Part shown: piece after piece, positions 3,021 to 32,976 of the stretch
Position numbering within the stretch: the first letter of the stretch is position 1
Layout of the letters: each line of letters begins with the position of its first letter
From: Candidatus Omnitrophota bacterium
GTDB lineage: Bacteria; Omnitrophota; Gorgyraeia; Duberdicusellales; 4484-171
Direction: 5' to 3'
NCBI GenBank assembly: GCA_021735655.1
Contig: JAIPGM010000002.1
Location: forward strand, 32,001 to 96,000
DNA length: 64,000 nt
The notes under the pieces: model-generated
What the model saw: the letters and a program-made list of their open reading frames with translations, nothing else
Databases searched by the model: none
What the model was told of the DNA's origin: nothing
Made by a program: the position numbers and the translations under genes

Positions 3021-4046
3021 GTGGACAAATTCGTATTATTGAGTGATAAAGACAAACGCGCCTATTTCGAAGTAGCCGCGGCTGACTTGAATGTAATGCC
3101 ACAGCTTATTGAAAAGGATTTCTGGGTTTGTTGGATACTCAGGACCCTTTTTTCGTTACCGTCATCAGGCAGTCACTTGACATTTAAGGGCGGTACATCA
3201 CTTTCAAAATGCTATGACGTTATCAGGCGTTTTTCAGAAGATGTCGATATTTCGATAGAAAGGTCTTTTTTATCAAGCCAACAGGCCATTGAACCTAAAA
3301 AACAAGAAAGTAACAAAGAAAACCAGCGAAGACTTGAAAGGTTACAGTTAGCCTGTCAAGCAAAGATCAGCGGCACTCTAATCCCAGAACTGAAAAAAAG
3401 TATTGCCGCTATTCTGACCGATAGAAAAAAATGGAATCTCGAAATCGATTCTAACGACGCATTAAAGCAGACAGTTTTGTTTACTTTCCCACACGCTTTG
3501 ACAAATAGTATGGAAAGCTACGTAAAGGCCGCTGTTAAAATTGAGTTTGGTTCCAGAGCCGACCATTGGCCTGTTGAAAATATGGCTGTTACGCCATATG
3601 TTGCTAATGTTTCAGACGATGTGACTATTGAAGGTGCATCAGTGCGTGTTTTAGCCGCAGAGCGGACCTTTTGGGAGAAAGCGACCATACTTCATATGAT
3701 ATATCATTATCCTGAAGGTAAGAATGTGCCTCCGCGGATGTCGCGGCACTATTATGATTTATTCGCGATGGTAGATTCTTTTGTATACAAGAAATCTTTA
3801 GAAAAAATATCGCTATTGAAACATGTATCCGATCATAAGTCTTTATTTTTTAAAGCTAACTGGGCGCATTATGAAGAGGCTAAACCGGGCAGCTTGCGGC
3901 TGGTGCCGCGCGATGACCAAATAAGCCAGTTGAAAACTGATTACCGACAAATGCAACAAATGTTTTTTGAGGATCCCCCGTCATTTGAGAGTGTTTTAGA
4001 GAAACTAAAAATAGCGGAAGATAAGATTAGCAGGGTCAAACAATGA
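3021..4046 (+). CDS. abiEii: nucleotidyltransferase toxin AbiEii/AbiGii (DUF1814)
   Basis: 341 aa with ..TFKGGTSLSKCYDVIRRFSEDVDISIE.. nucleotidyltransferase motifs characteristic of AbiEii. It is paired with abiEi. Confidence 0.8.
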   Translation: MDKFVLLSDKDKRAYFEVAAADLNVMPQLIEKDFWVCWILRTLFSLPSSGSHLTFKGGTSLSKCYDVIRRFSEDVDISIERSFLSSQQAIEPKKQESNKENQRRLERLQLACQAKISGTLIPELKKSIAAILTDRKKWNLEIDSNDALKQTVLFTFPHALTNSMESYVKAAVKIEFGSRADHWPVENMAVTPYVANVSDDVTIEGASVRVLAAERTFWEKATILHMIYHYPEGKNVPPRMSRHYYDLFAMVDSFVYKKSLEKISLLKHVSDHKSLFFKANWAHYEEAKPGSLRLVPRDDQISQLKTDYRQMQQMFFEDPPSFESVLEKLKIAEDKISRVKQ

Positions 4047-4167: not shown

Positions 4168-5316
4168 ATGAATAACCCAAAAAACTCAATAAAAAAGGCA
4201 GTCTACATCCGTACCTTCGGATGCCAGATGAATGATCGAGACTCTGAGGCTCTTCTAGGCCTTTTTGTTGATTTGGGGTATTCTGTAGCTAAAGAGCCTA
4301 AGGAGGCCGATGTAATATTAGTTAATACTTGTTCGGTGAGAGAGCATGCTGAAGACCGGGCCCGTTCTTTTTTAGGTAGCCTACAGAAGCTCGCTGAGCG
4401 CCGGCGTTCCCGAGGCGCTAAACATAAGATAATTGGGCTTATTGGTTGTATGGCTCAGAATACTGGAGAAGAAATATTTAAAAGAATGCCCTATGTTGAT
4501 TTAATCTGTGGACCTGGCTGTCTAGATAGAGTCGTTGCTTATATTCAAAAGATAGAGAAAGAAAAAGTTCGGATTCTTGACTTAGAGGATAAGAAACGTA
4601 AAAGTGAATTTTATCAAGGTTCCTATCGTATTGAGAGCGACCATGCCCAAGTTGTGATATCAACCGGCTGTTCTAATTATTGTTCATATTGTGTTGTTCC
4701 TTATGTACGTGGTGAGTTACGCTTGCGCAAACCCAAAGATATCATTGATGAGATAAAGCAGAATATAGCTTTAGGTATTTCGAAAATTACTTTGCTTGGT
4801 CAAAATGTTAATGATTATTTTTTTAATCAGCGGGTTAATTTTGTTGAGTTACTTAATCGAATCGAGGCAATAAATGGATTAACCGAGTTAAATTTCATTA
4901 CTTCGCAACCAAGGAATATTCCTAAAGGTTTATTCGAGCTGATGGCAAAGAGCGATAAAATATCAAAGCATTTGCATTTACCTTTTCAGTCAGGATCAAA
5001 TCGTATTTTAAAGGCGATGAAACGAGGTTATACGATTGATAAGTACTTGCAAATAGTCTCTGATTATAAGAAAATAGTAAAAGGTACCTTGAGTACCGAT
5101 GTCATTGTTGGCTTTCCGACTGAGAGCGATGAAGATTTTGCGCAAACTAAGGAAGTTTTAGAAAAGGTGCGTTTCTCGAGTGCTTATATTTTTAAATATT
5201 CACCACGGAAAAGGGCAAAAAGTGCTAAGTTAATTGATGATCTAGTTCAGAGCGAAAAAGTTAAGAGGCACAAGATATTGCTCGATCTGCAAAGGAAGAT
5301 TTCACGCGATGGTTAA
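4168..5316 (+). CDS. MiaB-like tRNA/ribosomal methylthiotransferase (radical SAM), apparently lacking the C-terminal TRAM domain
   Basis: N-terminal MTTase domain (IRTFGCQMNDRDSE) and radical SAM CSNYCSYCVVP. The 382-aa ORF ends where the next gene begins, which is about 60 aa short of a typical MiaB/MtaB. Confidence 0.75.
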   Translation: MNNPKNSIKKAVYIRTFGCQMNDRDSEALLGLFVDLGYSVAKEPKEADVILVNTCSVREHAEDRARSFLGSLQKLAERRRSRGAKHKIIGLIGCMAQNTGEEIFKRMPYVDLICGPGCLDRVVAYIQKIEKEKVRILDLEDKKRKSEFYQGSYRIESDHAQVVISTGCSNYCSYCVVPYVRGELRLRKPKDIIDEIKQNIALGISKITLLGQNVNDYFFNQRVNFVELLNRIEAINGLTELNFITSQPRNIPKGLFELMAKSDKISKHLHLPFQSGSNRILKAMKRGYTIDKYLQIVSDYKKIVKGTLSTDVIVGFPTESDEDFAQTKEVLEKVRFSSAYIFKYSPRKRAKSAKLIDDLVQSEKVKRHKILLDLQRKISRDG

Positions 5317-6049: not shown

Positions 6050-6967
6050 ATGAATCCGATTATTTGTATAGTTGGTCCGACCGCCTCCGGGAAAACTCAA
6101 ACTAGTTATCTATTGGCTCGTAAGCTTGGTGTTGAGATTATTTCTTGTGATTCGATGCTTATCTATCGGGAGCCTTCAATCATTACTTCAAAGCCATCGC
6201 ACCAGCTATTAGCCGAAGTTAACCATCATTTTATCGGAATAACTTCGGTTAGCGAAACTTATAGTGTGTTTGATTATTTTCGTTTGGCCACCGAAGCAAT
6301 TAGGGCTCTTTATTTTAAAAATCAATCTCCGGTAGTTTGTGGCGGAAGTGGCTTATATTTCAAAGCTATAATTGACGGTATTTTTCAAGGGCCGGGGAAA
6401 AATGATCAATTGCGCGAGTCTTTAATGAGAACTGCCGAGACCTACGGTAAACAATATCTTTATGAGGAGTTAAAAAAAGTAGATTCGCCGGCAGCAATGA
6501 GAATTTCTCCCAATGATTTAAGAAGAACCATCAGAGCACTTGAAGTCTATTATGAAAGCGGCATGCCGATGTCTCAAAAACAAACCTTTTCTTTTGGGTT
6601 ATGGGGAGATTTGCCGATTAAGATATTTGGTCTGCGGCTTAAGCGTAAAGAACTATATCACCGGATTGAAGAAAGGGTTGATCAGATGTTTGTTGAAGGC
6701 GCCGTAGATGAGGTTGAAGCTTTAAGACAGGGCAATTTGAGCCTTACTGCCGAGAAGATAATTGGGGTAAAAGAAATTTCTGAGTTTTTAGATGATAAGG
6801 TAACTGAGGCTCAGGCTAAGGCTAATATGAAGAAAAATACTCGCCATCTAGCTAAACGTCAAATAACTTGGTTTAAAAAAGAAAAGCGTATCGAGTGGAT
6901 AGATATTGATGAACAAACTCCTAAACAAACTGCTGAATTAATCGAGTCACGAATTAGCAATGCATGA
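6050..6967 (+). CDS. miaA: tRNA dimethylallyltransferase
   Basis: IVGPTASGKT P-loop and full-length similarity to MiaA. Confidence 0.9.
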   Translation: MNPIICIVGPTASGKTQTSYLLARKLGVEIISCDSMLIYREPSIITSKPSHQLLAEVNHHFIGITSVSETYSVFDYFRLATEAIRALYFKNQSPVVCGGSGLYFKAIIDGIFQGPGKNDQLRESLMRTAETYGKQYLYEELKKVDSPAAMRISPNDLRRTIRALEVYYESGMPMSQKQTFSFGLWGDLPIKIFGLRLKRKELYHRIEERVDQMFVEGAVDEVEALRQGNLSLTAEKIIGVKEISEFLDDKVTEAQAKANMKKNTRHLAKRQITWFKKEKRIEWIDIDEQTPKQTAELIESRISNA

Positions 6968-8228
6968 AACCATAAAAAAAGAAACCGCACTCTTGGTCGT
7001 GGTTAAAGAACCTAAAGAACTTTGGCTTTTTGAGGATTTAGCCTCGGAGTTTAAAAATTTAGTTATTTCTTCGGGGATTGAAGTGACTGAAGTTGTTTTA
7101 GTGAAACTGGCTCAGCCTAACCCTTCGCTTTATATTGGAAAAGGCAAGGTAGAAGAGATTAGACTTAAAAGGGAGGAGCTAGGGGTCGACGTAGTAATTT
7201 TTAACGCTAATTTGAAATTTACTCAACAGAGGAATCTGGAAGAAATATTAAATGTTAAGACCATTGATCGTACCCAGCTGATTTTAGATATATTCGCCAA
7301 GCACGCCCATAGTCAAGAAGGAATACTTCAGGTTGAGCTAGCTCAGTCTCAGTATCTCTTGCCGCGACTTAGAGGAAAAGGTATTGCTCTTAGCCGTTTA
7401 GGTGGTGGCATCGGGACCCGGGGCCCGGGTGAAAAAAAGCTTGAGGTTGATCAGAGAAAAATTTCCGATCGGATAAGTAAAATTAAAGAAGAACTTCATG
7501 ATCTAGGACAACATCATAATCTGATGCGCAAGCGGCGCGATAAGGCTAAAGAACATATGTGTTCTTTAGTTGGCTATACTAATGCCGGAAAGACTACCTT
7601 GTTTAATCTTCTAGCTCAAAGTGAGCAGGTAGAATCAGCCGGCTTGTTTACAACTTTAGATACAGTAACTCGTCAGTTTTCCTTAGCTGTTGGCCAAAAA
7701 GTAGTACTATCAGATACAGTAGGGTTTGTTTATAATTTACCTCCGAACCTAGTTGAGTCTTTTAAAACTACTCTTGATGAGTTGCAGTATTCAGATGTTT
7801 TATTACATTTAGTTGATCTGAGTAGTAAAAATTTCTTGCAGCTTAAGGCAGCGGTTGATAGTATCTTGACGGATTTAAAACTTGATTTAAAACCGACAAT
7901 TGTTGTTTTTAACAAGATTGATAAAATTTCCTCCCGAGAGGTTGAATTTTTAAAAAAAGATTATCCTAAGGCGGTTTTTATTTCTGCTAAGAGTGGTTTG
8001 GGTATAGAGGAATTAAAACAGGTAATTTCAATCAATATTTTTAAAGATACCCTAGAGGTTATAGCCAGGGTACCATTTGATCATATGGAAATTGTTAACT
8101 ATTTGCATAAAAATTGCGAGGTTTTGGAAAGCAACTATGAAGATAAAGAGGCTGTTTTTCACTTAAGGCTAAAGCGGGACAAATTAGATTATATTAAAAA
8201 TCAGGGGATCAAGACAAAGAAAGCTTAG
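6960..8228 (+). CDS. hflX: GTPase HflX
   Basis: N-terminal HflX domain plus G-domain (VGYTNAGKTTLFNLL, DTVGF, NKID). Confidence 0.9.
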   Translation: MHETIKKETALLVVVKEPKELWLFEDLASEFKNLVISSGIEVTEVVLVKLAQPNPSLYIGKGKVEEIRLKREELGVDVVIFNANLKFTQQRNLEEILNVKTIDRTQLILDIFAKHAHSQEGILQVELAQSQYLLPRLRGKGIALSRLGGGIGTRGPGEKKLEVDQRKISDRISKIKEELHDLGQHHNLMRKRRDKAKEHMCSLVGYTNAGKTTLFNLLAQSEQVESAGLFTTLDTVTRQFSLAVGQKVVLSDTVGFVYNLPPNLVESFKTTLDELQYSDVLLHLVDLSSKNFLQLKAAVDSILTDLKLDLKPTIVVFNKIDKISSREVEFLKKDYPKAVFISAKSGLGIEELKQVISINIFKDTLEVIARVPFDHMEIVNYLHKNCEVLESNYEDKEAVFHLRLKRDKLDYIKNQGIKTKKA

Positions 8229-9499: not shown

Positions 9500-10068
9500 C
9501 CAAGAAAAATAAAAAACAGACTTCAAAGGAAGAAGCGTTAGAGAAAATTCAAAAAGAGTGTGATGAGCTTCGCGATAGATACTTAAGGCTTCAGGCGGAG
9601 TTTGATAATTATCGTAAACGTTCATTGAAAGAAAGGGGTGATTTTGTTAAGTTTGCTAACGAAGGTTTAATTGTTGAGCTGTTAGGCATTCTTGATAACT
9701 TCGAGCGTGGCATAAAAGCAGCAGACCTAAAGAAGGATTTTGACCTTTTACATCAGGGTGTGGACATGATTTCAAAACAGCTGCACGGATTGCTAGAGAG
9801 CAAGGGTCTAAAGCGAATAAAAGCACTGGGTGAGAAGTTTGATCCACATCAACATGAAGCAATGCAGGTAGTTGAGACTGAAGGTGTCGAGCAGGACATG
9901 GTGATTGAGGAGATGCAACCGGGCTATTTGCTGAATGGGCGTATAGTCAGGCCAGCCAAGGTTAAAGTTGCTAAGGCAAAGGAAGAAAAAAAGGAAGACG
10001 CAGAGGAAGATATAATAGAAGATCAAACAGAAGAAGTGATAGAGGAAGATTTTAACAAGGGAGGTTAA
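9496..10068 (+). CDS. grpE: nucleotide exchange factor GrpE
   Basis: [12 protein letters not shown] motif. Position in the hrcA-grpE-dnaK-dnaJ operon. Confidence 0.9.
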
Positions 10069-10070
10069 TT

Positions 10071-11978
10071 ATGGCAAAAGTAATTGGAATTGATTTAGGG
10101 ACATCTAACTCATCAGCTGCAGTAATGGAGGGTGGCAGGCCAACAATAATTCCATCAGCTGAAGGAGCTGGCGTTGCAAGTGGAAAGGCTTTCCCTTCGG
10201 TAGTTGCCTTTACTAAAGATGGCCAGCGATTGGTTGGTGAACCAGCCAGGAGGCAGGCTTCAGTTAATCCCGAAGGAACAGTCTTGGCGGCCAAAAGAAA
10301 AATTGGAACAAACTTTAAATTCAGCGTTTATGGTAATGAATATACACCGCAGCAGATTTCAGCCTTTATTTTGCAAAAGATAAAGCAAGATGCTGAGAGT
10401 TATCTTGGTGATACGGTAACCGAGGCAGTGGTGACTGTACCAGCCTACTTTAATGATAATCAACGCCAAGCTACTAAAGATGCTGGAAAAATTGCCGGTT
10501 TAGAGGTTTTGCGAATTGTCAATGAGCCTACGGCGGCTTGTCTAGCTTATGGATTGAATAAGGTTGGTAAAGAACTCAAGATCATGGTTTTTGACTTTGG
10601 CGGTGGAACTCTAGATGTAACGGTTATGGAAATGTGGGCTGAAGGGGGCTTTAAAGTTCTCTCAACCTCCGGTGATACTCATCTTGGCGGAACTGACATG
10701 GACAAGGTTTTAATCGACCATATTGCCGAAGATTTTAAGAAACAGTCGGGCATTGATTTACGTAATGACAGTATGGCTATGCAACGTTTACGTGAAGCAG
10801 CTGAAAAGGCAAAGATAGAGCTTTCCAGCACCTTGACTACTGAGATAAATTTACCTTTTATTACTGCTGATCAATCAGGCCCTAAGCATCTTACAATTTC
10901 ACTCAATCGAGCTAAAGTCGAAGAGCTAGTTACGCCAATTATTGATAAGTGTAAGGCTCCGCTTCAGCAGGCTTTAGATGATGCTAAGTTGTCAGGTGGC
11001 GATATTGACAAAATTATAATGGTCGGTGGACCGACTCGGATGCCGATTGTTCAAAAGTTTCTTGAAGATTATGTCGGTAAAAAGATTGAACGGGGTATTG
11101 ATCCGATGGAGTGCGTTTCAATGGGTGCTGCAGTCCAGGCATCAATCATCAAGGGTGATACTAAAGATGTTTTGCTTTTGGATGTTACACCGCTTTCTTT
11201 AGGTATTGAAACTCTAGGCGGAGTATCAACTAAATTAATCGAAAGAAACACAACGATTCCGACTAAGAAGAGCCAGGTTTTTTCAACCGCTGAAAGCAAT
11301 CAGCCGGCAGTTACAATAAGGGTTCTGCAAGGGGAGCGGCCAATGGCTAGTGATAATATTGAGCTTGGTCGGTTTGACTTAGTGGGAATCCCACCGGCAC
11401 CACGCGGAGTGCCCCAGATAGAAGTTACTTTTGATATTGACGCTAACGGAATAGTTCATGTTACCGCCAAAGACAAAGGTACCGGAAAAGAGCAGTCAGT
11501 TCGGATAACTGCCCCGGATAAGTTATCTGAGGCTGATGTTGAAAAAATGGTTAAAGAGGCTGATAAGTATGCCGATGAAGATAAACAACGAAAAGAAGCA
11601 GCCGAGTTAAAGAATAAGGCTGATACTTTAGTTTATTCGACTGAGAAGTCGCTTAAGGACTACGGCGATAAGATTTCTGAAGGTGACAAAACTGATATTC
11701 AGAATAAACTTGATGCTTTAAGGGAGACTTTAAAGTTAAAAGAAGCAACTAAAGAGCAGATTGAAAAAGGCCTTGATGAATTAACTAAGGCTTCTCATAA
11801 GCTAGCTGAACAGGTTTATAAGGCTCAGAGTGCTCAGCAACAAGGGGCTCAAGATGCCGGAGCCGCTGGCCAAGGTCAGGCTGGCCCAGAAGCTAGTCAG
11901 CAACAAGATCCACAAACTGGCTCAAAAGATGATAATGTTGTTGATGCTGAATATAAGGAAGAAGATAACAAGCAGTAA
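10071..11978 (+). CDS. dnaK: molecular chaperone DnaK (Hsp70)
   Basis: [32 protein letters not shown] and other Hsp70 signatures. 635 aa. Confidence 0.97.
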
Positions 11979-27092: not shown

Positions 27093-27120
27093 TTGACAGA
27101 TATGATTTTGTAGATAGAAT
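27093..27120 (+). promoter_or_regulatory. candidate promoter TTGACA-N16-TAGAAT for tRNA-Glu
   Basis: -35 at 27093-27098 and -10 at 27115-27120, read directly. It is 15 nt upstream of the tRNA 5' end. Confidence 0.45.
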
Positions 27121-27135
27121 TATTATAATTTATTT

Positions 27136-27210
27136 GGCCCCATCGTCTAGTCCGGCCTAGGACACATGGTTCTCAGCCATGAGACACCGGTTCGAATCCG
27201 GTTGGGGCTA
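27136..27210 (+). tRNA. tRNA-Glu (anticodon CUC), no encoded CCA
   Basis: Folded by hand: acceptor GGCCCCA/TGGGGCT (G1-U72 wobble), D-arm GTCT..AGGAC as in tRNA-Glu, anticodon stem CATGG/CCATG with loop TTCTCAG giving anticodon CTC, T-arm ACCGG-TTCGAAT-CCGGT. Confidence 0.85.
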
Positions 27211-27262
27211 CTGTTTTTATTTCTCCCTATTGAATCCCCCCCTGTAGTGGTATAATTTAACT

Positions 27263-27925
27263 ATGAGAAAAGGATTTACCCTAATCGAACTAATAGTGGT
27301 CATTGCAATTATTGCAATTTTAGCTGCCATTATTGCTCCTAATGCTTTTAAAGCTATTGAGAAGGCAAAGATTGCAAAAACTATAGCCGAATTAAGGGTT
27401 TTCAAAACTGCTGCACATTCTTTGTATTCTGATACTGGTCGATGGCCAGGCTCTGGCGGAATTGGACCTATTGCTCAGTGGGTTTATCTTGATAATGGAT
27501 TAATTTGGCCGAGAACCCCTGCTGGTTTAAATAGCAGCTTGTTTGATAATGATGATGGAGTAGGAAATACAATTTCTGGTTGGGACGGACCGTATCTTGA
27601 TCGCCGATCATCTAAATCCGCTTGGGGTGGAACTTATGCTATGTATAAACGTTACAATGGTTTTCCTCAAACTGGATCTAGTGCCGGCGATCTTACTCTT
27701 GTTATTACTAGCATTTGTTATGGGTCACTTAATTCAGTGCTATCTAACAGGAATTGCCCTTTGAGTGAAGAATTAGCGGAGATAATTAATGGTAAAATTG
27801 AAGGCGACAATGATTTACGTTTTGACCAATCAACCGCCGGAAATTTTAGAAAGTTCCTTTGGGCTAACTCGGGTGATACTTGGGAAGGTTTTTATCATTT
27901 CATGATTGGAGAAGACGTTTTATAG
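27263..27925 (+). CDS. GspG-like pseudopilin / type IV pilin paralog 1
   Basis: Class III signal MRKG|FTLIELIVVIAIIAILAAIIAPNAF with Glu5, and GspG-like ..AIEKAK..L..Y..D.GRWP.. plus the WDGPYL motif. A TGGTATAAT -10 ends 7 nt before the ATG with no SD, suggesting a leaderless mRNA. Confidence 0.8.
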   Translation: MRKGFTLIELIVVIAIIAILAAIIAPNAFKAIEKAKIAKTIAELRVFKTAAHSLYSDTGRWPGSGGIGPIAQWVYLDNGLIWPRTPAGLNSSLFDNDDGVGNTISGWDGPYLDRRSSKSAWGGTYAMYKRYNGFPQTGSSAGDLTLVITSICYGSLNSVLSNRNCPLSEELAEIINGKIEGDNDLRFDQSTAGNFRKFLWANSGDTWEGFYHFMIGEDVL

Positions 27926-27938
27926 GGGGAGGCATCCC

Positions 27939-28496
27939 ATGAAAAAATCATTCACTCTAATCGAACTTATAGTAGTCATCGCTATTATAGCTATCCTTGC
28001 CGCAATTATTGCCCCGAATGCTTTTCGGGCTATTGAGAAGGCGAAGGTGGCTCAGGTGGTATCAGATTTAAAGACATTTAAAACAGCTGCTGTAGGTTAT
28101 TATGGGGATACTGGGCAGTGGCCACCAGATGGGGTTAGTTGGTTTACTGATGAAGAGCTGCAGTTTTTCATTACTGGAGTAGGGCAACCAGCAGGCTGGG
28201 ATGGACCCTATTTAGAAAGTTGGCCAAATCCACCTTGGCATTGTGAATTTGTCTATGGTGCTGATACGGTTCATGAAAATTATGATTGGGACCACTGGGT
28301 GGGGTGGTCTTATTGGGGTGTAGTGCCTGCGAATACTGATACTTGCGGTGCAAGTATTTCATGCGTTCCTCAAAAGTCAGCGACAAAGATAGATGTTAGT
28401 TTAGATGACGGTAACCCTTCTTCGGGCAGGGTTCGTTGGGTCAGCTCATATGCCGGTGGTTTCATGAATGCAATTATCATCGAAGGAGGACAGTAA
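27939..28496 (+). CDS. GspG-like pseudopilin paralog 2
   Basis: True start MKKSFTLIEL at 27939 with a GGGGGAGG RBS. The track ORF begins earlier at 27906. Conserved prepilin N-terminus and GWDGPYLE motif, with a divergent Trp-rich C-terminus. Confidence 0.8.
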   Translation: MKKSFTLIELIVVIAIIAILAAIIAPNAFRAIEKAKVAQVVSDLKTFKTAAVGYYGDTGQWPPDGVSWFTDEELQFFITGVGQPAGWDGPYLESWPNPPWHCEFVYGADTVHENYDWDHWVGWSYWGVVPANTDTCGASISCVPQKSATKIDVSLDDGNPSSGRVRWVSSYAGGFMNAIIIEGGQ

Positions 28497-28531
28497 AGGC
28501 CTGATTTGCATTGATAAGAGAAATAACTACT

Positions 28532-29134
28532 ATGAAAAAATCATTTACTCTCATTGAACTAATTGTAGTCATAGCTATCATTGCTATCCTTGCTGCAATC
28601 ATTGCTCCCAATGCCTTTCGTGCCATTGAGAAAGCTAAAATTACAAAAACCATTGCTGATCTAAAAGCCATAAAAACTGCCATTGGGGCTATGTATGCTG
28701 ATACTGGAAAATTTCCCAGCGGCTGTATTGCCTTTACCGTCAATGACCCTGAAGTTAATTTAGATACGGCACAGGCAGGGTTGGTATCCGAACCTCCGGT
28801 TGGAATTTTTACTGGCGCTACCGGCGGCACTTGTGAGTGGACCCAAGCTAATGTCAATTCTTGGGATGGTCCTTACCTTGAAAGCGGGCAAGTAAAGGAT
28901 GTTTGGCATTCAGCATATCATTATGACCCTGATTATTATTATTGCATAAATGGATATTTAAGCCCAGCTGGAGACGGGCCAATAACTAATTGCGGTGACG
29001 CTCCGGTAGCTCAAACTTGTCTAGAGGTATGCGGCGGCGCCTTTAACTGTGGCTTTCCAGTAATACAATCATTTGGCCCTGACAAAAGCGGTTATGGTTG
29101 TGATGATATTATAGTAAAAATGACACTCAATTAG
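28532..29134 (+). CDS. GspG-like pseudopilin paralog 3 (Cys-rich C-terminus)
   Basis: Start MKKSFTLIEL at 28532. WDGPYLE and the C-terminal SFGPDKSGYGCDDIIVK motif are shared with the 43503 paralog. Confidence 0.8.
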   Translation: MKKSFTLIELIVVIAIIAILAAIIAPNAFRAIEKAKITKTIADLKAIKTAIGAMYADTGKFPSGCIAFTVNDPEVNLDTAQAGLVSEPPVGIFTGATGGTCEWTQANVNSWDGPYLESGQVKDVWHSAYHYDPDYYYCINGYLSPAGDGPITNCGDAPVAQTCLEVCGGAFNCGFPVIQSFGPDKSGYGCDDIIVKMTLN

Positions 29135-29282
29135 TGAAAAATAAATAGATAATTAACCACTTTTCCAATCCCAATCAACCCAAAACCGACTATTTCCTTT
29201 CCGTTTGACCACTTTTTACCAAGATGGTTGACAGTTTGGTTGACATCTTACGCTTAACTACTTGAGCCATAATAGTTTTAAT

Positions 29283-29463
29283 AGGACGCATGGTTCTTAG
29301 TCATGAGACACCGGTTCGAACTCGCAATTATTTAGGTTTTTACCTCTCGAGTCCATGAGTACGCCGAAGGCGTACGAATGAATCCTTCCGCCTGCGGACT
29401 AAAGTCCTCGGCGGAATCCCGCCGAATCCGCCAAAGGCAGATGCAGGCGGGAGGTTGGGGCTA
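29283..29463 (+). pseudogene. tRNA remnant (3' two-thirds of the tRNA-Glu-like gene, anticodon loop now TTCTTAG) interrupted by a ~128-nt GC-rich structured insertion
   Basis: 29283-29320 AGGACgCATGGTTCTtAGtCATGAGACACCGGTTCGAA aligns with 27159-27196 of the tRNA-Glu. The tRNA 3' end GGTTGGGGCTA plus similar T-rich downstream sequence reappears at 29453-29477. No matching 5' acceptor strand is present. The intervening 29325-29452 folds into at least three GC hairpins (GTACGCC-GAA-GGCGTAC, TTCCGCC..GGACTAAAGTCC..GGCGGAA, CCCGCC..GGCGGG). Confidence 0.55.
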
Positions 29464-29619
29464 TTTGTTTTCATTTTTTCTTCAGAATTTTAGTAAATCC
29501 CATACGAATTAGTTTTCTATCTTTAAGGATGAGGCCAGGCTATATTTTGAGGTGGCATAAGAGTCAGCTGATGATATAATATGCTTAGTTCTAGAAGCAG
29601 TACATAAAGGGAGTAAAAG

Positions 29620-30543
29620 ATGAAAAAAGTAATCGTTGCGACAACAATACAAAACCCTACAGAAGCTATTGAAAAATTTGATAGTTTGAAGGAATGGACG
29701 CTTATTGTAGTAGGAGACTTAAAAACTCCAGAAAGTTATAAATTAGAAAATGGTATGTATTTCTCTCCCCAGGAGCAAGAAAAATATGATCAAGAGCTTT
29801 CTGATTTAATTGGCTGGAATACCCACGCGAGGAGAAATTTCGGCCATCTATTAGCAAAAGACATGGGTGCGGATGTTATTGCATGTGTGGATGATGACAA
29901 TATTCCGTATAATACATGGGGAAAAGACATTTTTATAGGAAAAGTTGTAGAGGCTAATTACTATGAATCTGACCTCGAGGCTTTTGACCCTGTAGGCGCT
30001 ACTAATCACCCTTACTTATGGCATAGAGGTTTTCCTATTCAGCTAATAAATAAAAGGGATTATAGTAAAAAAATAAAAAAGAAAATAAAAGTAGATATCC
30101 AAGCAGATTTTTGGAACGGTGATCCGGATATAGATGCTATATGCCGAATGATTTATAAATCGGAGGTTAGCTTCGAAGAACAGTATTTTCCTATAGCGTC
30201 TAACAAGCCGTCTCCTTTTAATTCGCAAAATACATTTATTGCGAAAGATGTCCTTCCATATTGTTTTTTTCTTCCACATATTACGCCACTTGGAAGACAG
30301 AGTGATATAGGGATCTCTTATCACTTAGCATCGCTGGGATATAATGTTATATATTGCAAGCCGTCTGTTTATCAGGCTAGAAACACACACAACTTAACTA
30401 TAGATATGGAGGATGAGTTTAAGGGATATATGAGCAATATAGATATCGTAAGAGCTATAGGCAATGGAACGTATAAGAAAGAAGACTTCTGGCCTGAACA
30501 GACATGCGCAGCATATGAGGTTTATCAGAGGAGATTTAAGTGA
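29620..30543 (+). CDS. GT75-like protein (reversibly glycosylated polypeptide / UDP-arabinopyranose mutase family homolog)
   Basis: By-eye alignment with plant RGP1. IVATTIQNP...LIVVGD resembles IVIPTIRN...IIVQDGD. DVIACVDDDNIP resembles YIFTIDDDCF. HRGFPIQL...DFWNGDPDIDA resembles RGYPFSLREGV...GLWLNIPDYDA. RQSDIGISYHLASLGYNV...NTHN resembles RYDDMWAGW..HLGLGVK...SNP. A TATAAT -10 and AAGGGAG RBS lie upstream. The gene is A+T-rich. Confidence 0.45.
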   Translation: MKKVIVATTIQNPTEAIEKFDSLKEWTLIVVGDLKTPESYKLENGMYFSPQEQEKYDQELSDLIGWNTHARRNFGHLLAKDMGADVIACVDDDNIPYNTWGKDIFIGKVVEANYYESDLEAFDPVGATNHPYLWHRGFPIQLINKRDYSKKIKKKIKVDIQADFWNGDPDIDAICRMIYKSEVSFEEQYFPIASNKPSPFNSQNTFIAKDVLPYCFFLPHITPLGRQSDIGISYHLASLGYNVIYCKPSVYQARNTHNLTIDMEDEFKGYMSNIDIVRAIGNGTYKKEDFWPEQTCAAYEVYQRRFK

Positions 30544-31460
30544 AGAATAGCAACGATACAAAAATCAATAATTCACTTTCCGGCATACTTTGTTGTATAA
30601 ATTTCAACGAAGTGCACTACGACAATATAGAATTTTTAAAAGATTTGTATAGCAATTTTGTTGATGTAGTTTTTTACGGGCCAGAGCGGAAGCAGGGGTT
30701 CGAAGTAAATCAATTATGCCACCATCGTGGCTATTTTAGTTATGCAGTGATATTAGACGCAATTAAAAAATTTCCAGATTACAATGGATATATATTTGTT
30801 AATGATGATTGTATCATGAATATATGGCAATTCATAAATAAAGACAAGACTAAAGTATGGTTGCAGCCGTTTCATTCTAAAGTTAATCGCCATGATTATA
30901 AAGAAAGCACATGGTTTTGGCTGAATGAGCCATGCGGTATCTCTGCTTATGGTAAAGCTTTCTTGCAAATCCCGCGTAGATACCGTGAAAGGCTTAAATC
31001 GTCATTTGGGTCTGAAGATGCTGTGATTTGTGGACCTGCTGATTGTTTTTATTTGCCCAAAAGACGGATAAATGATTTTGCTTCCTTGTTTGATATATAT
31101 TTTTCCAACAGGGTGTTTACTGAAATAGCGGTGCCTACTGGCCTATACGCAATCGAAGATAAGGCACAAATTACAGTTTTCAAGGGTCATGACAGAGTGA
31201 CATTTCCTTTGTCATTTATTCCTTATGACCTAAAAGCAAAAATATTCTACAGAGGAGAGTTGGACTTATACCATCCTTTAAAATTGTCTAATTCTAAAAT
31301 GAGATCTATGGTTAAAAATATGTTTAATGTATATCTTTTTCAAAGAAATAAATTTTTTTCAAAAATTTTAAGATTATGCGATTTGCTACGTCCTTTTATT
31401 TGGTTTTGGGCATATATGTATATGATTCAGGGGAGATTTTTGAGAAAGATTCGTTATTGA
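30540..31460 (+). CDS. putative GT-A-fold nucleotide-sugar transferase (hydrophobic-DDx motif YIFVNDDC), unknown family
   Basis: 306 aa. Its start overlaps the stop of the GT75-like gene, indicating an operon. The DxD-like motif is preceded by a beta-strand-like hydrophobic run. No confident family assignment. Confidence 0.3.
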   Translation: MKNSNDTKINNSLSGILCCINFNEVHYDNIEFLKDLYSNFVDVVFYGPERKQGFEVNQLCHHRGYFSYAVILDAIKKFPDYNGYIFVNDDCIMNIWQFINKDKTKVWLQPFHSKVNRHDYKESTWFWLNEPCGISAYGKAFLQIPRRYRERLKSSFGSEDAVICGPADCFYLPKRRINDFASLFDIYFSNRVFTEIAVPTGLYAIEDKAQITVFKGHDRVTFPLSFIPYDLKAKIFYRGELDLYHPLKLSNSKMRSMVKNMFNVYLFQRNKFFSKILRLCDLLRPFIWFWAYMYMIQGRFLRKIRY

Positions 31461-31537
31461 AAAGTTATATGAGAAAGTAGAAGCAAACTGTTAACTTATA
31501 GTTTCGTGATATAATTTTAAGCAGAGGAGGTACCCTA

Positions 31538-31657
31538 TGAAAAAATCATTCACCCTCATCGAACCAATAGTAGTCATTGCTATTATTGCAGCAATCATCG
31601 CCCCTAATGCGTTTAAAGCTATTGAAAAAGCAGAGGAAGTAAAATGTCCACTTGGTG
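31538..31657 (+). pseudogene. truncated pseudopilin gene fragment (39 codons)
   Basis: MKKSFTLIEPIVVIAIIA-AIIAPNAFKAIEKAEEV... is the conserved prepilin N-terminus with a 3-codon in-frame deletion and L->P change, then an early stop. It retains a GATATAAT -10 and GGAGG RBS. Confidence 0.6.
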
Positions 31658-31846
31658 GCAAGATAAGAATCTAGGAGGTAGGTGGTATTGGAAATTAATA
31701 TTAATGGTGCTATTTGTTGGTATTGCTGTACGAATCATTATTAGCATATCAATAAGATAACAGGTGATTTAATTTTATAGTATTTTTTTATTATGAAGTT
31801 GTTGATAACGGCTGGTCTATTTTTAATCGGATTCACAACTAGTCAT

Positions 31847-32425: not shown

Positions 32426-32758
32426 TTACCAGCGGTTTAATACCTTTTGCTGGTCTTGAAACTTTTTATTGAGGGATTCTGCGGTATTTTCACTACGTTT
32501 GAGTAATGTCTGATATTCTGAGGAACCGATGTTCTCAGCTGAAGGGTTGGCTTCGTCATTTTTGTTAAAAAAATCTTTCCTGAGATAGAGCTTATTCATG
32601 ATAAGGAGGATGAGAGCGGAGATAATCGTGAAAGTTACAACAATGCTGATTAGGCTAGCAAAACCTTTTTTACCATACATAAGGATAAATTTTGGCTGCA
32701 GCAGGAGGCACTCCACCAACCACGGGAGAGGTAGTAAGCCTTTACCTGCCACAACCAC
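32426..32758 (-). CDS. small membrane protein (possible true start at Met27, 32680)
   Basis: Hydrophobic segment KKGFASLISIVVTFTIISALILLIM is loosely prepilin-like but lacks Glu5. No family recognised. Confidence 0.35.
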   Translation of the reverse strand: MVVAGKGLLPLPWLVECLLLQPKFILMYGKKGFASLISIVVTFTIISALILLIMNKLYLRKDFFNKNDEANPSAENIGSSEYQTLLKRSENTAESLNKKFQDQQKVLNRW

Positions 32759-32813
32759 TCCTGAATATATCCATTATAACTTAATAATTATAAAATTGAA
32801 AGCATAAGATAAT

Positions 32814-32844
32814 AAAAAAAGAGAGGTTTCTACCTCTCTTTTTT
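32814..32844. terminator. bidirectional rho-independent terminator (A7 - GAGAGGT-TTCT-ACCTCTC - T6)
   Basis: 7-bp perfect stem with a tetraloop at 32821-32838, flanked by A-run 32814-32820 and T-run 32839-32844. On the minus strand it terminates the small-lipoprotein transcript. Confidence 0.6.
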
Positions 32845-32976
32845 GGAAAACCTCTCCCGTGGCTGGTGGATCCTCCTACTTCATTTATACAATGTTAAAC
32901 GTTGAGTTTCAAGGGTTTGGGAGGTTAACTTTGGAAACGCTTCCAGGGGATAGGTTGTTTTAGTGAGAAGATTATC

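Follow-up and report, generated by a model that had tools for sequence, protein, structure and literature searches.

The DNA analyzed here is a stretch of 64,000 nucleotides (nt) from a Candidatus Omnitrophica metagenome-assembled genome (MAG), hereafter the window. It contains an intact tRNA-Glu(CUC) gene (DNA anticodon CTC) and, downstream, a partial copy of the same gene that is interrupted by hairpin-forming DNA. This partial copy is most likely a dead, non-functional 3′ fragment of tRNA-Glu (gene nt 23–76) with two generations of hairpin insertions. In the interpretation that we favor and consider reasonably probable, it is the scar of an insertion into the tRNA gene, and its T arm was later invaded twice by hairpin elements, the younger of which belongs to a conserved 67-nt family. 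Related loci, all of them metagenomic, are designated by L numbers, and positions refer to the window unless a locus is named (Table 1).

A tRNA-Glu remnant with a composite insert

The intact tRNA-Glu gene has its own promoter, TTGACA-16-TAGAAT, located at 27093–27120 by a promoter scan. The first piece of the partial copy covers the 3′ strand of the D stem, the anticodon arm, the variable loop, the 5′ strand of the T stem, and most of the T loop. It differs from the intact gene at three positions, all transitions, and one of these converts the anticodon from CTC to CTT. A preliminary description of this DNA had recognized the D-stem-to-T-loop homology and the CTT anticodon correctly but placed the start at 29283; the copy begins one position earlier, at 29282. 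As that description had also noticed, the 3′ end of the tRNA reappears at 29453. The sequence GGTTGGGGCTA at 29453–29463 is identical to tRNA nt 65–75 (27200–27210; 100% by BLAST), and the T-rich trailer that follows it is homologous to the trailers of intact tRNA genes. No homolog of the 5′ acceptor strand or of the 5′ strand of the D arm was found at the remnant, and neither ARAGORN nor Rfam RF00005 detected a functional tRNA in 29200–29500, in agreement with the earlier view that the copy is not a working tRNA.

The two remnant pieces are separated by 132 nt (29321–29452), rather than by the 128 nt counted originally, and this insert has two parts: an older module of ~62 nt (module X), which entered the T loop, and a younger 67-nt element. 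Between them lies the trinucleotide TCC. Read against the native sequence ...TTCGAATCC|GGTTGGGG, it represents nt 62–64 of the tRNA gene, stranded between two insertions. The 67-nt element entered cleanly at CC^GG (gene nt 64|65) without target duplication; its flanks, GAATCC|...|GGTTGG, are the native uninterrupted sequence, with nothing duplicated or lost. The corresponding empty site is present in L034, where a degenerate 3′ remnant lies downstream of the intact tRNA and module X is followed directly by GAATCC|GGTTGGGGCTA. An alignment of L034 with the window minus the 67 nt extends over 129 columns at 72% and scores 109, compared with 25.6 ± 4.7 for shuffled sequences. A miniature inserted element was among the possibilities raised beforehand, and the 67 nt bear it out as the clean insertion of an element that is found elsewhere.

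Module X folds into two hairpins, ACUCG...CGAGU around AGGU/ACCU and GUACGCC-GAA-GGCGUAC. In L034 the second hairpin reads ACCCGCC-GAA-GGCGGGU, a difference of three compensatory pairs from the window. Module X has drifted toward AT, and strong GC-richness is confined to the 67-nt part of the insert; the initial description of the insert as GC-rich in an AT-rich genome is refined accordingly. The element has a GC content of 63%–70%, compared with 38.8% for the window, and 60-nt windows of the 3′ half of the insert reach 63%–67%, making it the most GC-rich non-rRNA stretch of that size in the neighborhood. The 67-nt element and module X may be related, with module X in a decayed state, as its low post hoc scores of 15.4 bits (window) and 21.2 bits (L034) with R1, a covariance model of the element family, weakly suggest. 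A separate observation concerns the L034 remnant, in which the D side and the anticodon arm (L034 1030–1090) are replaced by GC-rich hairpins with GAA or GGAA loops (CCGC-GGAA-GCGG and GCACAC-GAA-GTGTGC). Their likeness to the GAA-loop hairpins of the double-hairpin element suggests that remnants of this kind have gained hairpins more than once.

The 67-nt element consists of two tandem stem-loops, SL1 and SL2. R1 was built from an alignment of eight distinct sequences; RNAalifold, applied to the same alignment, gives both outer stems and the inner SL1 hairpin, and the inner SL2 hairpin was added from single-sequence folds. The consensus outer stems are TYCCGCC...GGCGGRA for SL1 and TCCCGCM...KGCGGGA for SL2, and each encloses a small hairpin. 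In this double-hairpin fold, 94.0% of the alignment cells are paired and compensatory changes affect six pairs (15 cells). The covariation score is 0.205 compared with 0.093 ± 0.017 in shuffles, none of which (0/500) did as well, and slid controls were at most 48% paired. Both inner hairpins of L035 have been replaced in sequence and kept as hairpins. The hairpins named in the preliminary description are therefore real, and two of the stems, TTCCGCC...GGCGGAA and CCCGCC...GGCGGG, are backed by covariation in homologs. A four-way junction, which is the minimum free energy (MFE) fold of the window copy, was rejected because it performed worse than the double hairpin (91.3% paired, covariation score 0.156); its mismatches fall where the double hairpin has C-G↔U-A and A-U↔C-G exchanges. 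The folding energy is −85.9 kcal/mol for the 221-nt region as a whole (z = −5.5; none of 200 shuffles did as well) and −41.3 kcal/mol for the 67-nt part taken by itself (z = −6.9). Rfam 15, run on the whole window at the gathering threshold, matched no family to any part of the insert, and a search of 29100–29650 at E ≤ 10 returned only a chance match to CRISPR-DR11 (17 bits).

The 67-nt element beside GIY-YIG genes

The 67-nt element is single-copy in the window. In related genomes it recurs at no fewer than seven loci, which represent five or more distinct lineages of Omnitrophota. The first of these, L019, came from a metagenome scan that used 21 nt of the insert as query, and its 67-nt copy is 94% identical over 50 nt to window 29388–29437. 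The order in L019 is promoter, GGCCCCATCGTCT (tRNA nt 1–13), the 67-nt sequence, AGCCCGGCC (nt 14–22), an open reading frame (ORF) for an 86-amino-acid (aa) GIY-YIG protein, and an intact tRNA-Glu. Homologs of the ORF comprise 26 proteins, and those that are named come from Omnitrophota. They yielded L029/30, L031–33, L034, L035, and L036/37, all of which carry the same unit of fragment, element, ORF, and tRNA-Glu.

In L019 and in all of these loci, the element lies between T13 and A14 (CT^AG) of a fragment that comprises tRNA nt 1–22. Its flanks, CGTCT|...|AGCC, are native tRNA sequence without duplication or loss, and every such fragment precedes the GIY-YIG ORF, which is followed by the intact tRNA-Glu. 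L036 carries fragment and element on both sides of the ORF (L036 2888–3351). In that locus, the second copy is followed by a spacer that ends in ATGTGG, identical to the first two codons of the ORF, and is fused to the 5′ end of the tRNA; the spacer may be the footprint of a deleted second ORF copy.

The ORF matches Pfam PF01541 (E = 1.8e-17) and scores 27.9 bits with TIGR01453, below the cutoff of 56. The protein consists of the catalytic domain only, with no DNA-binding domain, and a PDB sequence search with it gave no match. The GIY-YIG loci have a consensus TTGACA-17-TAAAAT promoter upstream, and the element is located 20–37 nt before the start codon. Presence and absence of the unit can be followed at one conserved locus, YacP–TPR–(unit)–tRNA-Glu: L029, L035, and L036 have the unit there, and the window, L010, L012, L015, and L017 lack it. 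The unit also occurs in another genomic context (L031).

Rfam searches with the L019 copy at E ≤ 5 matched no family, and the result was the same for L020, a metagenome match that was judged unrelated to the element. Eight matches to GCGGACTAAAGTCCTCGG in a genome collection (Acidobacteria, Gemmataceae, Balneola, and others) share the small hairpin only, with no tRNA nearby and the rest of the element missing, and were set aside as chance matches or unrelated hairpin repeats. Independently, the motif GCAGGTCCCTCC[GA]CGCGGACTAAAGTCCTCGGTCGGGATGAC was seen in three unrelated Acidobacteriota MAGs (L023 ~6300–6340, L024 ~5220–5265, and L028 ~7880–7925); it looks like a REP-type repeat with the same GGAC-TAAA-GTCC hairpin. 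Of two viral-contig scans, one was empty and the other gave two chance matches inside coding sequence. The literature searched, with incomplete coverage, contained no description of bacterial GIY-YIG genes with tRNA-fragment/hairpin units, and the 67-nt double-hairpin family is apparently undescribed so far.

Proposed origin of the remnant and the nt 22|23 breakpoint

Three tandem paralogous type IV pilin-like genes separate the intact tRNA from the 3′ remnant in the window. Synteny was anchored on the TPR gene upstream of tRNA-Glu; the gene at 29620–30543 was dropped as an anchor, as its homologs sit in unrelated polysaccharide loci. In L010, L012, and L017 the pilin genes are missing and the order is TPR, tRNA-Glu, terminator, PilZ (minus strand), and HisF, with nothing intervening. 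Because tRNA-Glu stands directly before the terminator and PilZ in these three loci, the pilin block and the remnant represent an insertion. The window reads tRNA, three pilin paralogs, a conserved non-coding arm, remnant with insert, two glycosyltransferase (GT)-like genes, a truncated pilin gene, terminator, and PilZ, and L015 (GCA_018826075.1) reads TPR, tRNA-Glu, pilin, arm, remnant, pilin, terminator, and PilZ. The L015 remnant likewise has nt 23 as its first nucleotide (TAGGAC). It is uninterrupted, is identical to that genome's own tRNA at 52 of 53 positions, and shares its T-stem variant. Since L015 has the same remnant behind the same arm without interruption, the remnant is old and the insert in the window is secondary.

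The arm is ~80% identical to L015 5074–5174 over 101 nt, including GGTTGACAGTTTRGTTGACA, and the homologous stretch reaches L015 5197. It is better conserved between the two loci than the C-terminal domains of the pilins, and the neighboring pilins are conserved at the N terminus only. Three TTGAC[CA] repeats lie in the arm (29204–29211, 29226–29233, and 29238–29245). The TTGACA pair at 29228–29245 pointed out earlier is indeed present and is conserved in L015, but a sigma-70 promoter was rejected because neither the window nor L015 has a −10 hexamer at usable spacing. The arm may hold protein-binding sites. It is present once in each of the two loci; simple tandem duplication of tRNA 3′ part, pilin, and arm therefore fails and was rejected. 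As judged from sequence and gene order, the layout is explained if a segment made up of nt 23–76, trailer, pilin(s), and arm was inserted between nt 22 and 23.

The GIY-YIG-linked 5′ fragments always end at nt 22, and the 3′ fragments of the window and L015 begin at nt 23. This breakpoint, which 5′ and 3′ remnants have in common to the nucleotide, indicates that DNA enters the tRNA-Glu(CUC) gene at a single preferred position. In the course of events that we propose, the pilin genes and the ~120-nt arm would have been inserted into tRNA-Glu between nt 22 and 23. The incoming segment would have brought its own copy of nt 23–76; this would have restored an intact tRNA upstream and turned the resident 3′ part into a redundant fragment. 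More generally, incoming DNA would carry either nt 1–22 at its right end or nt 23–76 at its left end; because it carries the missing tRNA part, the intact gene would be re-formed and a redundant fragment left behind. The T arm of this fragment would have been invaded first by the ~62-nt module and later by the 67-nt element at the center of CCGG. The simplest driver would be a break made by the GIY-YIG nuclease and repaired from the occupied allele, a homing-like process. A precedent comes from fungal mitochondria, in which homing-endonuclease ORFs arrive with a new end for the gene and strand the old one as a fragment.

The double hairpin would then be a tiny non-autonomous mobile element that moves between tRNA-Glu-derived sequences, and we infer that the copy in the window is a passenger without host function. 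No evidence for a host function was found at the window locus, and the orthologous sites of L015 and L034 are without the element. Both known insertion sites lie inside redundant tRNA-Glu fragments, which by a rough estimate (a ~55-nt target and an assumed ~200 kb of non-coding DNA) is unlikely to be due to chance. This suggests either that the element prefers tRNA-Glu-derived sequence as its target or that it has a function connected with such fragments. With a target preference, the element would be seen in fragments and not in the working gene because insertions into the latter would be lost; a fragment-tied role could be to break up flanking direct repeats or a leftover nuclease target.

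Several points weigh against this reading. There is no GIY-YIG gene in the 64-kb window. A search of the window and ~280 kb of related loci with model R1 gave no second copy of the 67-nt element, so that mobility is judged from one comparison of an empty with a filled site. The independent insertion sites number two, in the D loop and the T stem, and all D-loop copies may come from one event. An 86-aa protein without a DNA-binding domain is only a putative cutter of tRNA-Glu DNA, the nt 22|23 breakpoint is only suggestive as a trace of site-specific cleavage, and the intact re-formed tRNA would still hold any target that lies wholly inside the gene. The proposed events also offer no explanation for the strong conservation of the arm. 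Finally, the covarying stems show selection on pairing, which fits a functional RNA as well as hairpin-dependent mobile DNA; RNA and single-stranded or cruciform DNA are indistinguishable here because all exchanges are Watson-Crick.

The insertion-scar reading can be extended, with considerable doubt, to an undescribed bacterial homing element that targets tRNA genes and has the double hairpin and the tRNA-Glu fragments as working parts. The 86-aa GIY-YIG nuclease would break tRNA-Glu(CUC) at nt 22|23, and the elements would bring a replacement tRNA part. The 67-nt hairpin would be a structure-recognized substrate that the nuclease mobilizes in trans or a device that disrupts the leftover target or repeat, and such disruption would give immunity or stabilize the element. 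Such a system would account for the restriction of the 67-nt element to tRNA-Glu remnants.

The main rival, which we regard as unlikely, is that the double hairpin is a functional cis-acting RNA and not selfish DNA. Next to GIY-YIG genes, it would act as a 5′ untranslated region (UTR) element (a stabilizer, a processing site, or a means of translational control) of a nuclease mRNA made from the tRNA promoter, and in the window its role would be that of a 3′ UTR stabilizer or a terminator-like structure that closes the pilin operon, before the T-rich tRNA trailer. Stems that covary and are kept in at least five lineages, very stable folding (z about −7), and, in the GIY-YIG loci, the consensus promoter upstream and the short distance to the start codon are what such an RNA would be expected to have. 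Terminator prediction gave nothing between the last pilin gene and the element, which is therefore probably co-transcribed with the pilins. The same 67-nt unit, however, occurs in two transcript settings that are unrelated to each other, ahead of a nuclease gene and downstream of pilins, and in both it sits inside a tRNA-Glu fragment, which a generic stabilizer would not need. L015 and L034 do without the element at the orthologous site, no U-run directly follows it, and its exchanges have no G-U versus A-C asymmetry that would mark a strand. For the related option of a tRNA-derived regulatory RNA, there is no support so far.

A still less probable explanation makes the remnant an attR-type scar of a tyrosine-integrase islet, with the 132 nt as leftover island DNA or the scar of a deleted second element. 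The layout invites it: a direct repeat of the tRNA 3′ part (27158–27196/29282–29320 and 27200–27210/29453–29463) flanks foreign-looking cargo by a tRNA gene, the locus is hypervariable among relatives, and the three repeats of the arm could be arm-type binding sites for a recombinase. Yet for the window, L015, and L034, ORFs, Pfam, and gene tables revealed no integrase or recombinase flanked by the repeats or adjacent to them; the window ORFs between and around the repeats encode pilins, a TPR protein, and GT-like proteins. With its first nucleotide at nt 23, in the D arm, the repeat abuts the ends of the GIY-YIG-linked 5′ fragments exactly, with no overlap region. Nor is the insert a random leftover, because both of its parts have homologs with conserved hairpins elsewhere. 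An integrase att scar is therefore not the best-fitting mechanism, given that no integrase is nearby and the breakpoint is shared with GIY-YIG-linked 5′ remnants. The more general suggestion of a recombination scar in the preliminary description is borne out; the remnant is shared with L015 and uninterrupted there.

We give almost no credence to the remnant being part of a working tRNA-type RNA (an intron-containing gene, a split half, or a D-armless RNA with the upstream AGUUUUA as acceptor strand): the 5′ (nt 1–22) and 3′ (nt 23–76) fragments are exactly complementary halves and in the MFE fold AAUAGUUUUAA and UUGGGGCUAUU come together in acceptor register by means of G-U pairs, but an intact tRNA-Glu(CUC) is present in every locus, both halves occur together only in L034, where the 3′ half is heavily degenerate, the anticodon is mutated to CTT, ARAGORN and the tRNA covariance model reject the sequence, the two boundaries of the insert face each other within an unbroken helix with no bulge-helix-bulge (BHB), and the pseudo-acceptor pairing amounts to 5–6 of 7 in L015. 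The 11-bp AAUAGUUUUAA/UUGGGGCUAUU pairing is probably fortuitous, as it needs four G-U pairs and is kept only partly in L015. An archaeal-type BHB intron was rejected on its junctions, which lie in a continuous helix (C-G/U-A or C-G/C-G flanks), and on its host, which is a gene fragment. Readings as tmRNA, group I intron, or split tRNA were ruled out by ARAGORN, Rfam, and comparison of junctions and fragments.

Some observations in the surroundings complete the description of the locus. The truncated pilin gene has a TGaTATAAT-type promoter, as do the pilin genes that follow tRNA-Glu, and is probably the resident pilin that once followed the remnant, before the genes at 29620–31460 were inserted. 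In L012 (9186–9300), tRNA-Glu and its promoter are inverted relative to L010 (9255–9385) and the window; the inversion is small and local, lies between the same flanking genes, and falls in the same hot spot. Between PilZ and HisF, a nearly invariant long-range inverted repeat of ~30 bp (arms GGCAGGAGGC..CTCCACCAACCACGGGAGAGGTA and partner ACCTCTCCCGTGGCTGGTGG..CCTCC) flanks ~125 nt of variable AT-rich sequence with a terminator-like hairpin. It is conserved in four genomes (window 32695–32880, L010 ~9955–10145, L012 ~9865–10055, and L036 ~3580–3785), had no Rfam match at E ≤ 1, and could be either a long-hairpin non-coding RNA (ncRNA) or a segment capable of phase-variable inversion. The fluoride riboswitch at 956–1018 (crcB motif, 62.7 bits) is unrelated to the remnant.

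Table 1. Features of the tRNA-Glu locus in the window
Feature	Position	Strand	Basis or remark
Intact tRNA-Glu(CUC) gene	27136–27211	+	ARAGORN; Rfam RF00005, 56.9 bits; source of the homology
Three tandem paralogous type IV pilin-like genes	27263–27925, 27906–28496, 28511–29134	+	Pfam N_methyl/T2SSG; repeat family D1
Conserved non-coding arm	29161–29281	+	Adjoins remnant upstream; BLAST to L015, E = 3.5e-19
tRNA-Glu remnant, gene nt 23–61	29282–29320	+	36/39 identity to 27158–27196 (92%, repeat search)
Module X, older insertion in T loop, two hairpins	29321–29382	+	Homologous to L034 ~1090–1150
TCC, gene nt 62–64	29383–29385	+	Read against native sequence
67-nt double-hairpin element (core)	29386–29452	+	Homologs in L019, L029–L037; model R1, 89.1 bits
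SL1	29386–29416	+	TTCCGCC..GGAC-TAAA-GTCC..GGCGGAA
SL2	29417–29452	+	TCCCGCC..ATCCGCC-AAA-GGCAGAT..GGCGGGA
tRNA-Glu remnant, nt 65–75, then T-rich trailer	29453–29500	+	GGTTGGGGCTA at 29453–29463
Two GT-like genes	29620–31460		Protein of 29620–30543 100% identical to NCBI K9L86_01300
Truncated pilin gene, 45 codons (MKKSFTLIEP...)	31537–31674	+	Sequence; compared with L015 4340–4520; called as 45-aa gene in L001

Significance and relation to known systems

The odd pseudo-tRNA becomes a readable record of how one tRNA gene, tRNA-Glu, has repeatedly received insertions in Omnitrophota, a phylum that has been little studied. Also defined here are an apparently undescribed 67-nt element supported by covariation and its tie to a minimal GIY-YIG gene directly upstream of tRNA-Glu, apparently under the same promoter. 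If nuclease and hairpin are mechanistically linked, the system would be a compact new model of homing into essential RNA genes and a bacterial counterpart of organellar double-hairpin elements. If they are not linked, it would be a tidy case of selfish hairpin DNA settling in redundant gene fragments. For annotators, the locus advises caution before such loci are called ncRNAs.

Integrative elements that target tRNA genes share several features with the window locus: a partial tRNA repeat bounds the cargo, an intact tRNA is restored at one junction, and the site is a hot spot. Unlike them, the window locus has no integrase, its cargo consists of ~2 kb of pilin genes, and the repeat begins in the D arm. 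The 67-nt element is small, palindromic, intergenic, and non-coding, as are REP/BIME sequences and miniature inverted-repeat transposable elements (MITEs), and its ends, TYCCGCCTGC...GCAKGCGGGA, are complementary in the manner of the terminal inverted repeats of MITEs. It differs from both groups in that there is no target-site duplication, no RAYT or transposase gene is nearby, and the target is the center of a 4-bp palindrome in tRNA-derived DNA. Its copy number in the 64-kb window is one.

The closest parallel to the GIY-YIG gene is SegB of phage T4, a GIY-YIG homing endonuclease that is encoded by a free-standing gene in the tRNA gene cluster and recognizes a conserved tRNA gene motif (PMC2330249). 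In both cases, a small GIY-YIG gene lies directly beside tRNA genes, at a conserved locus that may or may not contain it. The phage protein SegB includes a DNA-binding part, and its cleavage and homing have been demonstrated, whereas the Omnitrophota protein has 86 aa and a catalytic domain and is read from sequence. Unlike segB, the Omnitrophota gene is accompanied by a duplicated tRNA fragment with a structured insert, and the window has no such gene.

In architecture, the 67-nt element is most like the double-hairpin elements of organelles. Those of Allomyces mitochondrial DNA are described as GC-rich elements in an AT-rich genome that lack flanking duplications (PMC2800124, citing Paquin et al., 2000). 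As far as that account extends, the 67-nt element resembles organellar double-hairpin elements, repetitive hairpin-forming elements, and GC clusters in being short and GC-rich, in having two tandem hairpins, in the lack of target duplication, and in stems that survive sequence change. The Omnitrophota loci provide tandem stable GC-rich hairpins, filled (window) and empty (L034) sites without duplication, and a second, different site in the GIY-YIG loci. The organellar elements, within the scope of the same account, are multi-copy and dispersed in intergenic regions, introns, and variable regions of rRNA genes, whereas the element described here is bacterial and known from two sites. Unlike them, it occurs in tRNA-Glu fragments only and most of its copies are linked to GIY-YIG genes; the likeness is one of architecture, and no sequence homology is claimed.

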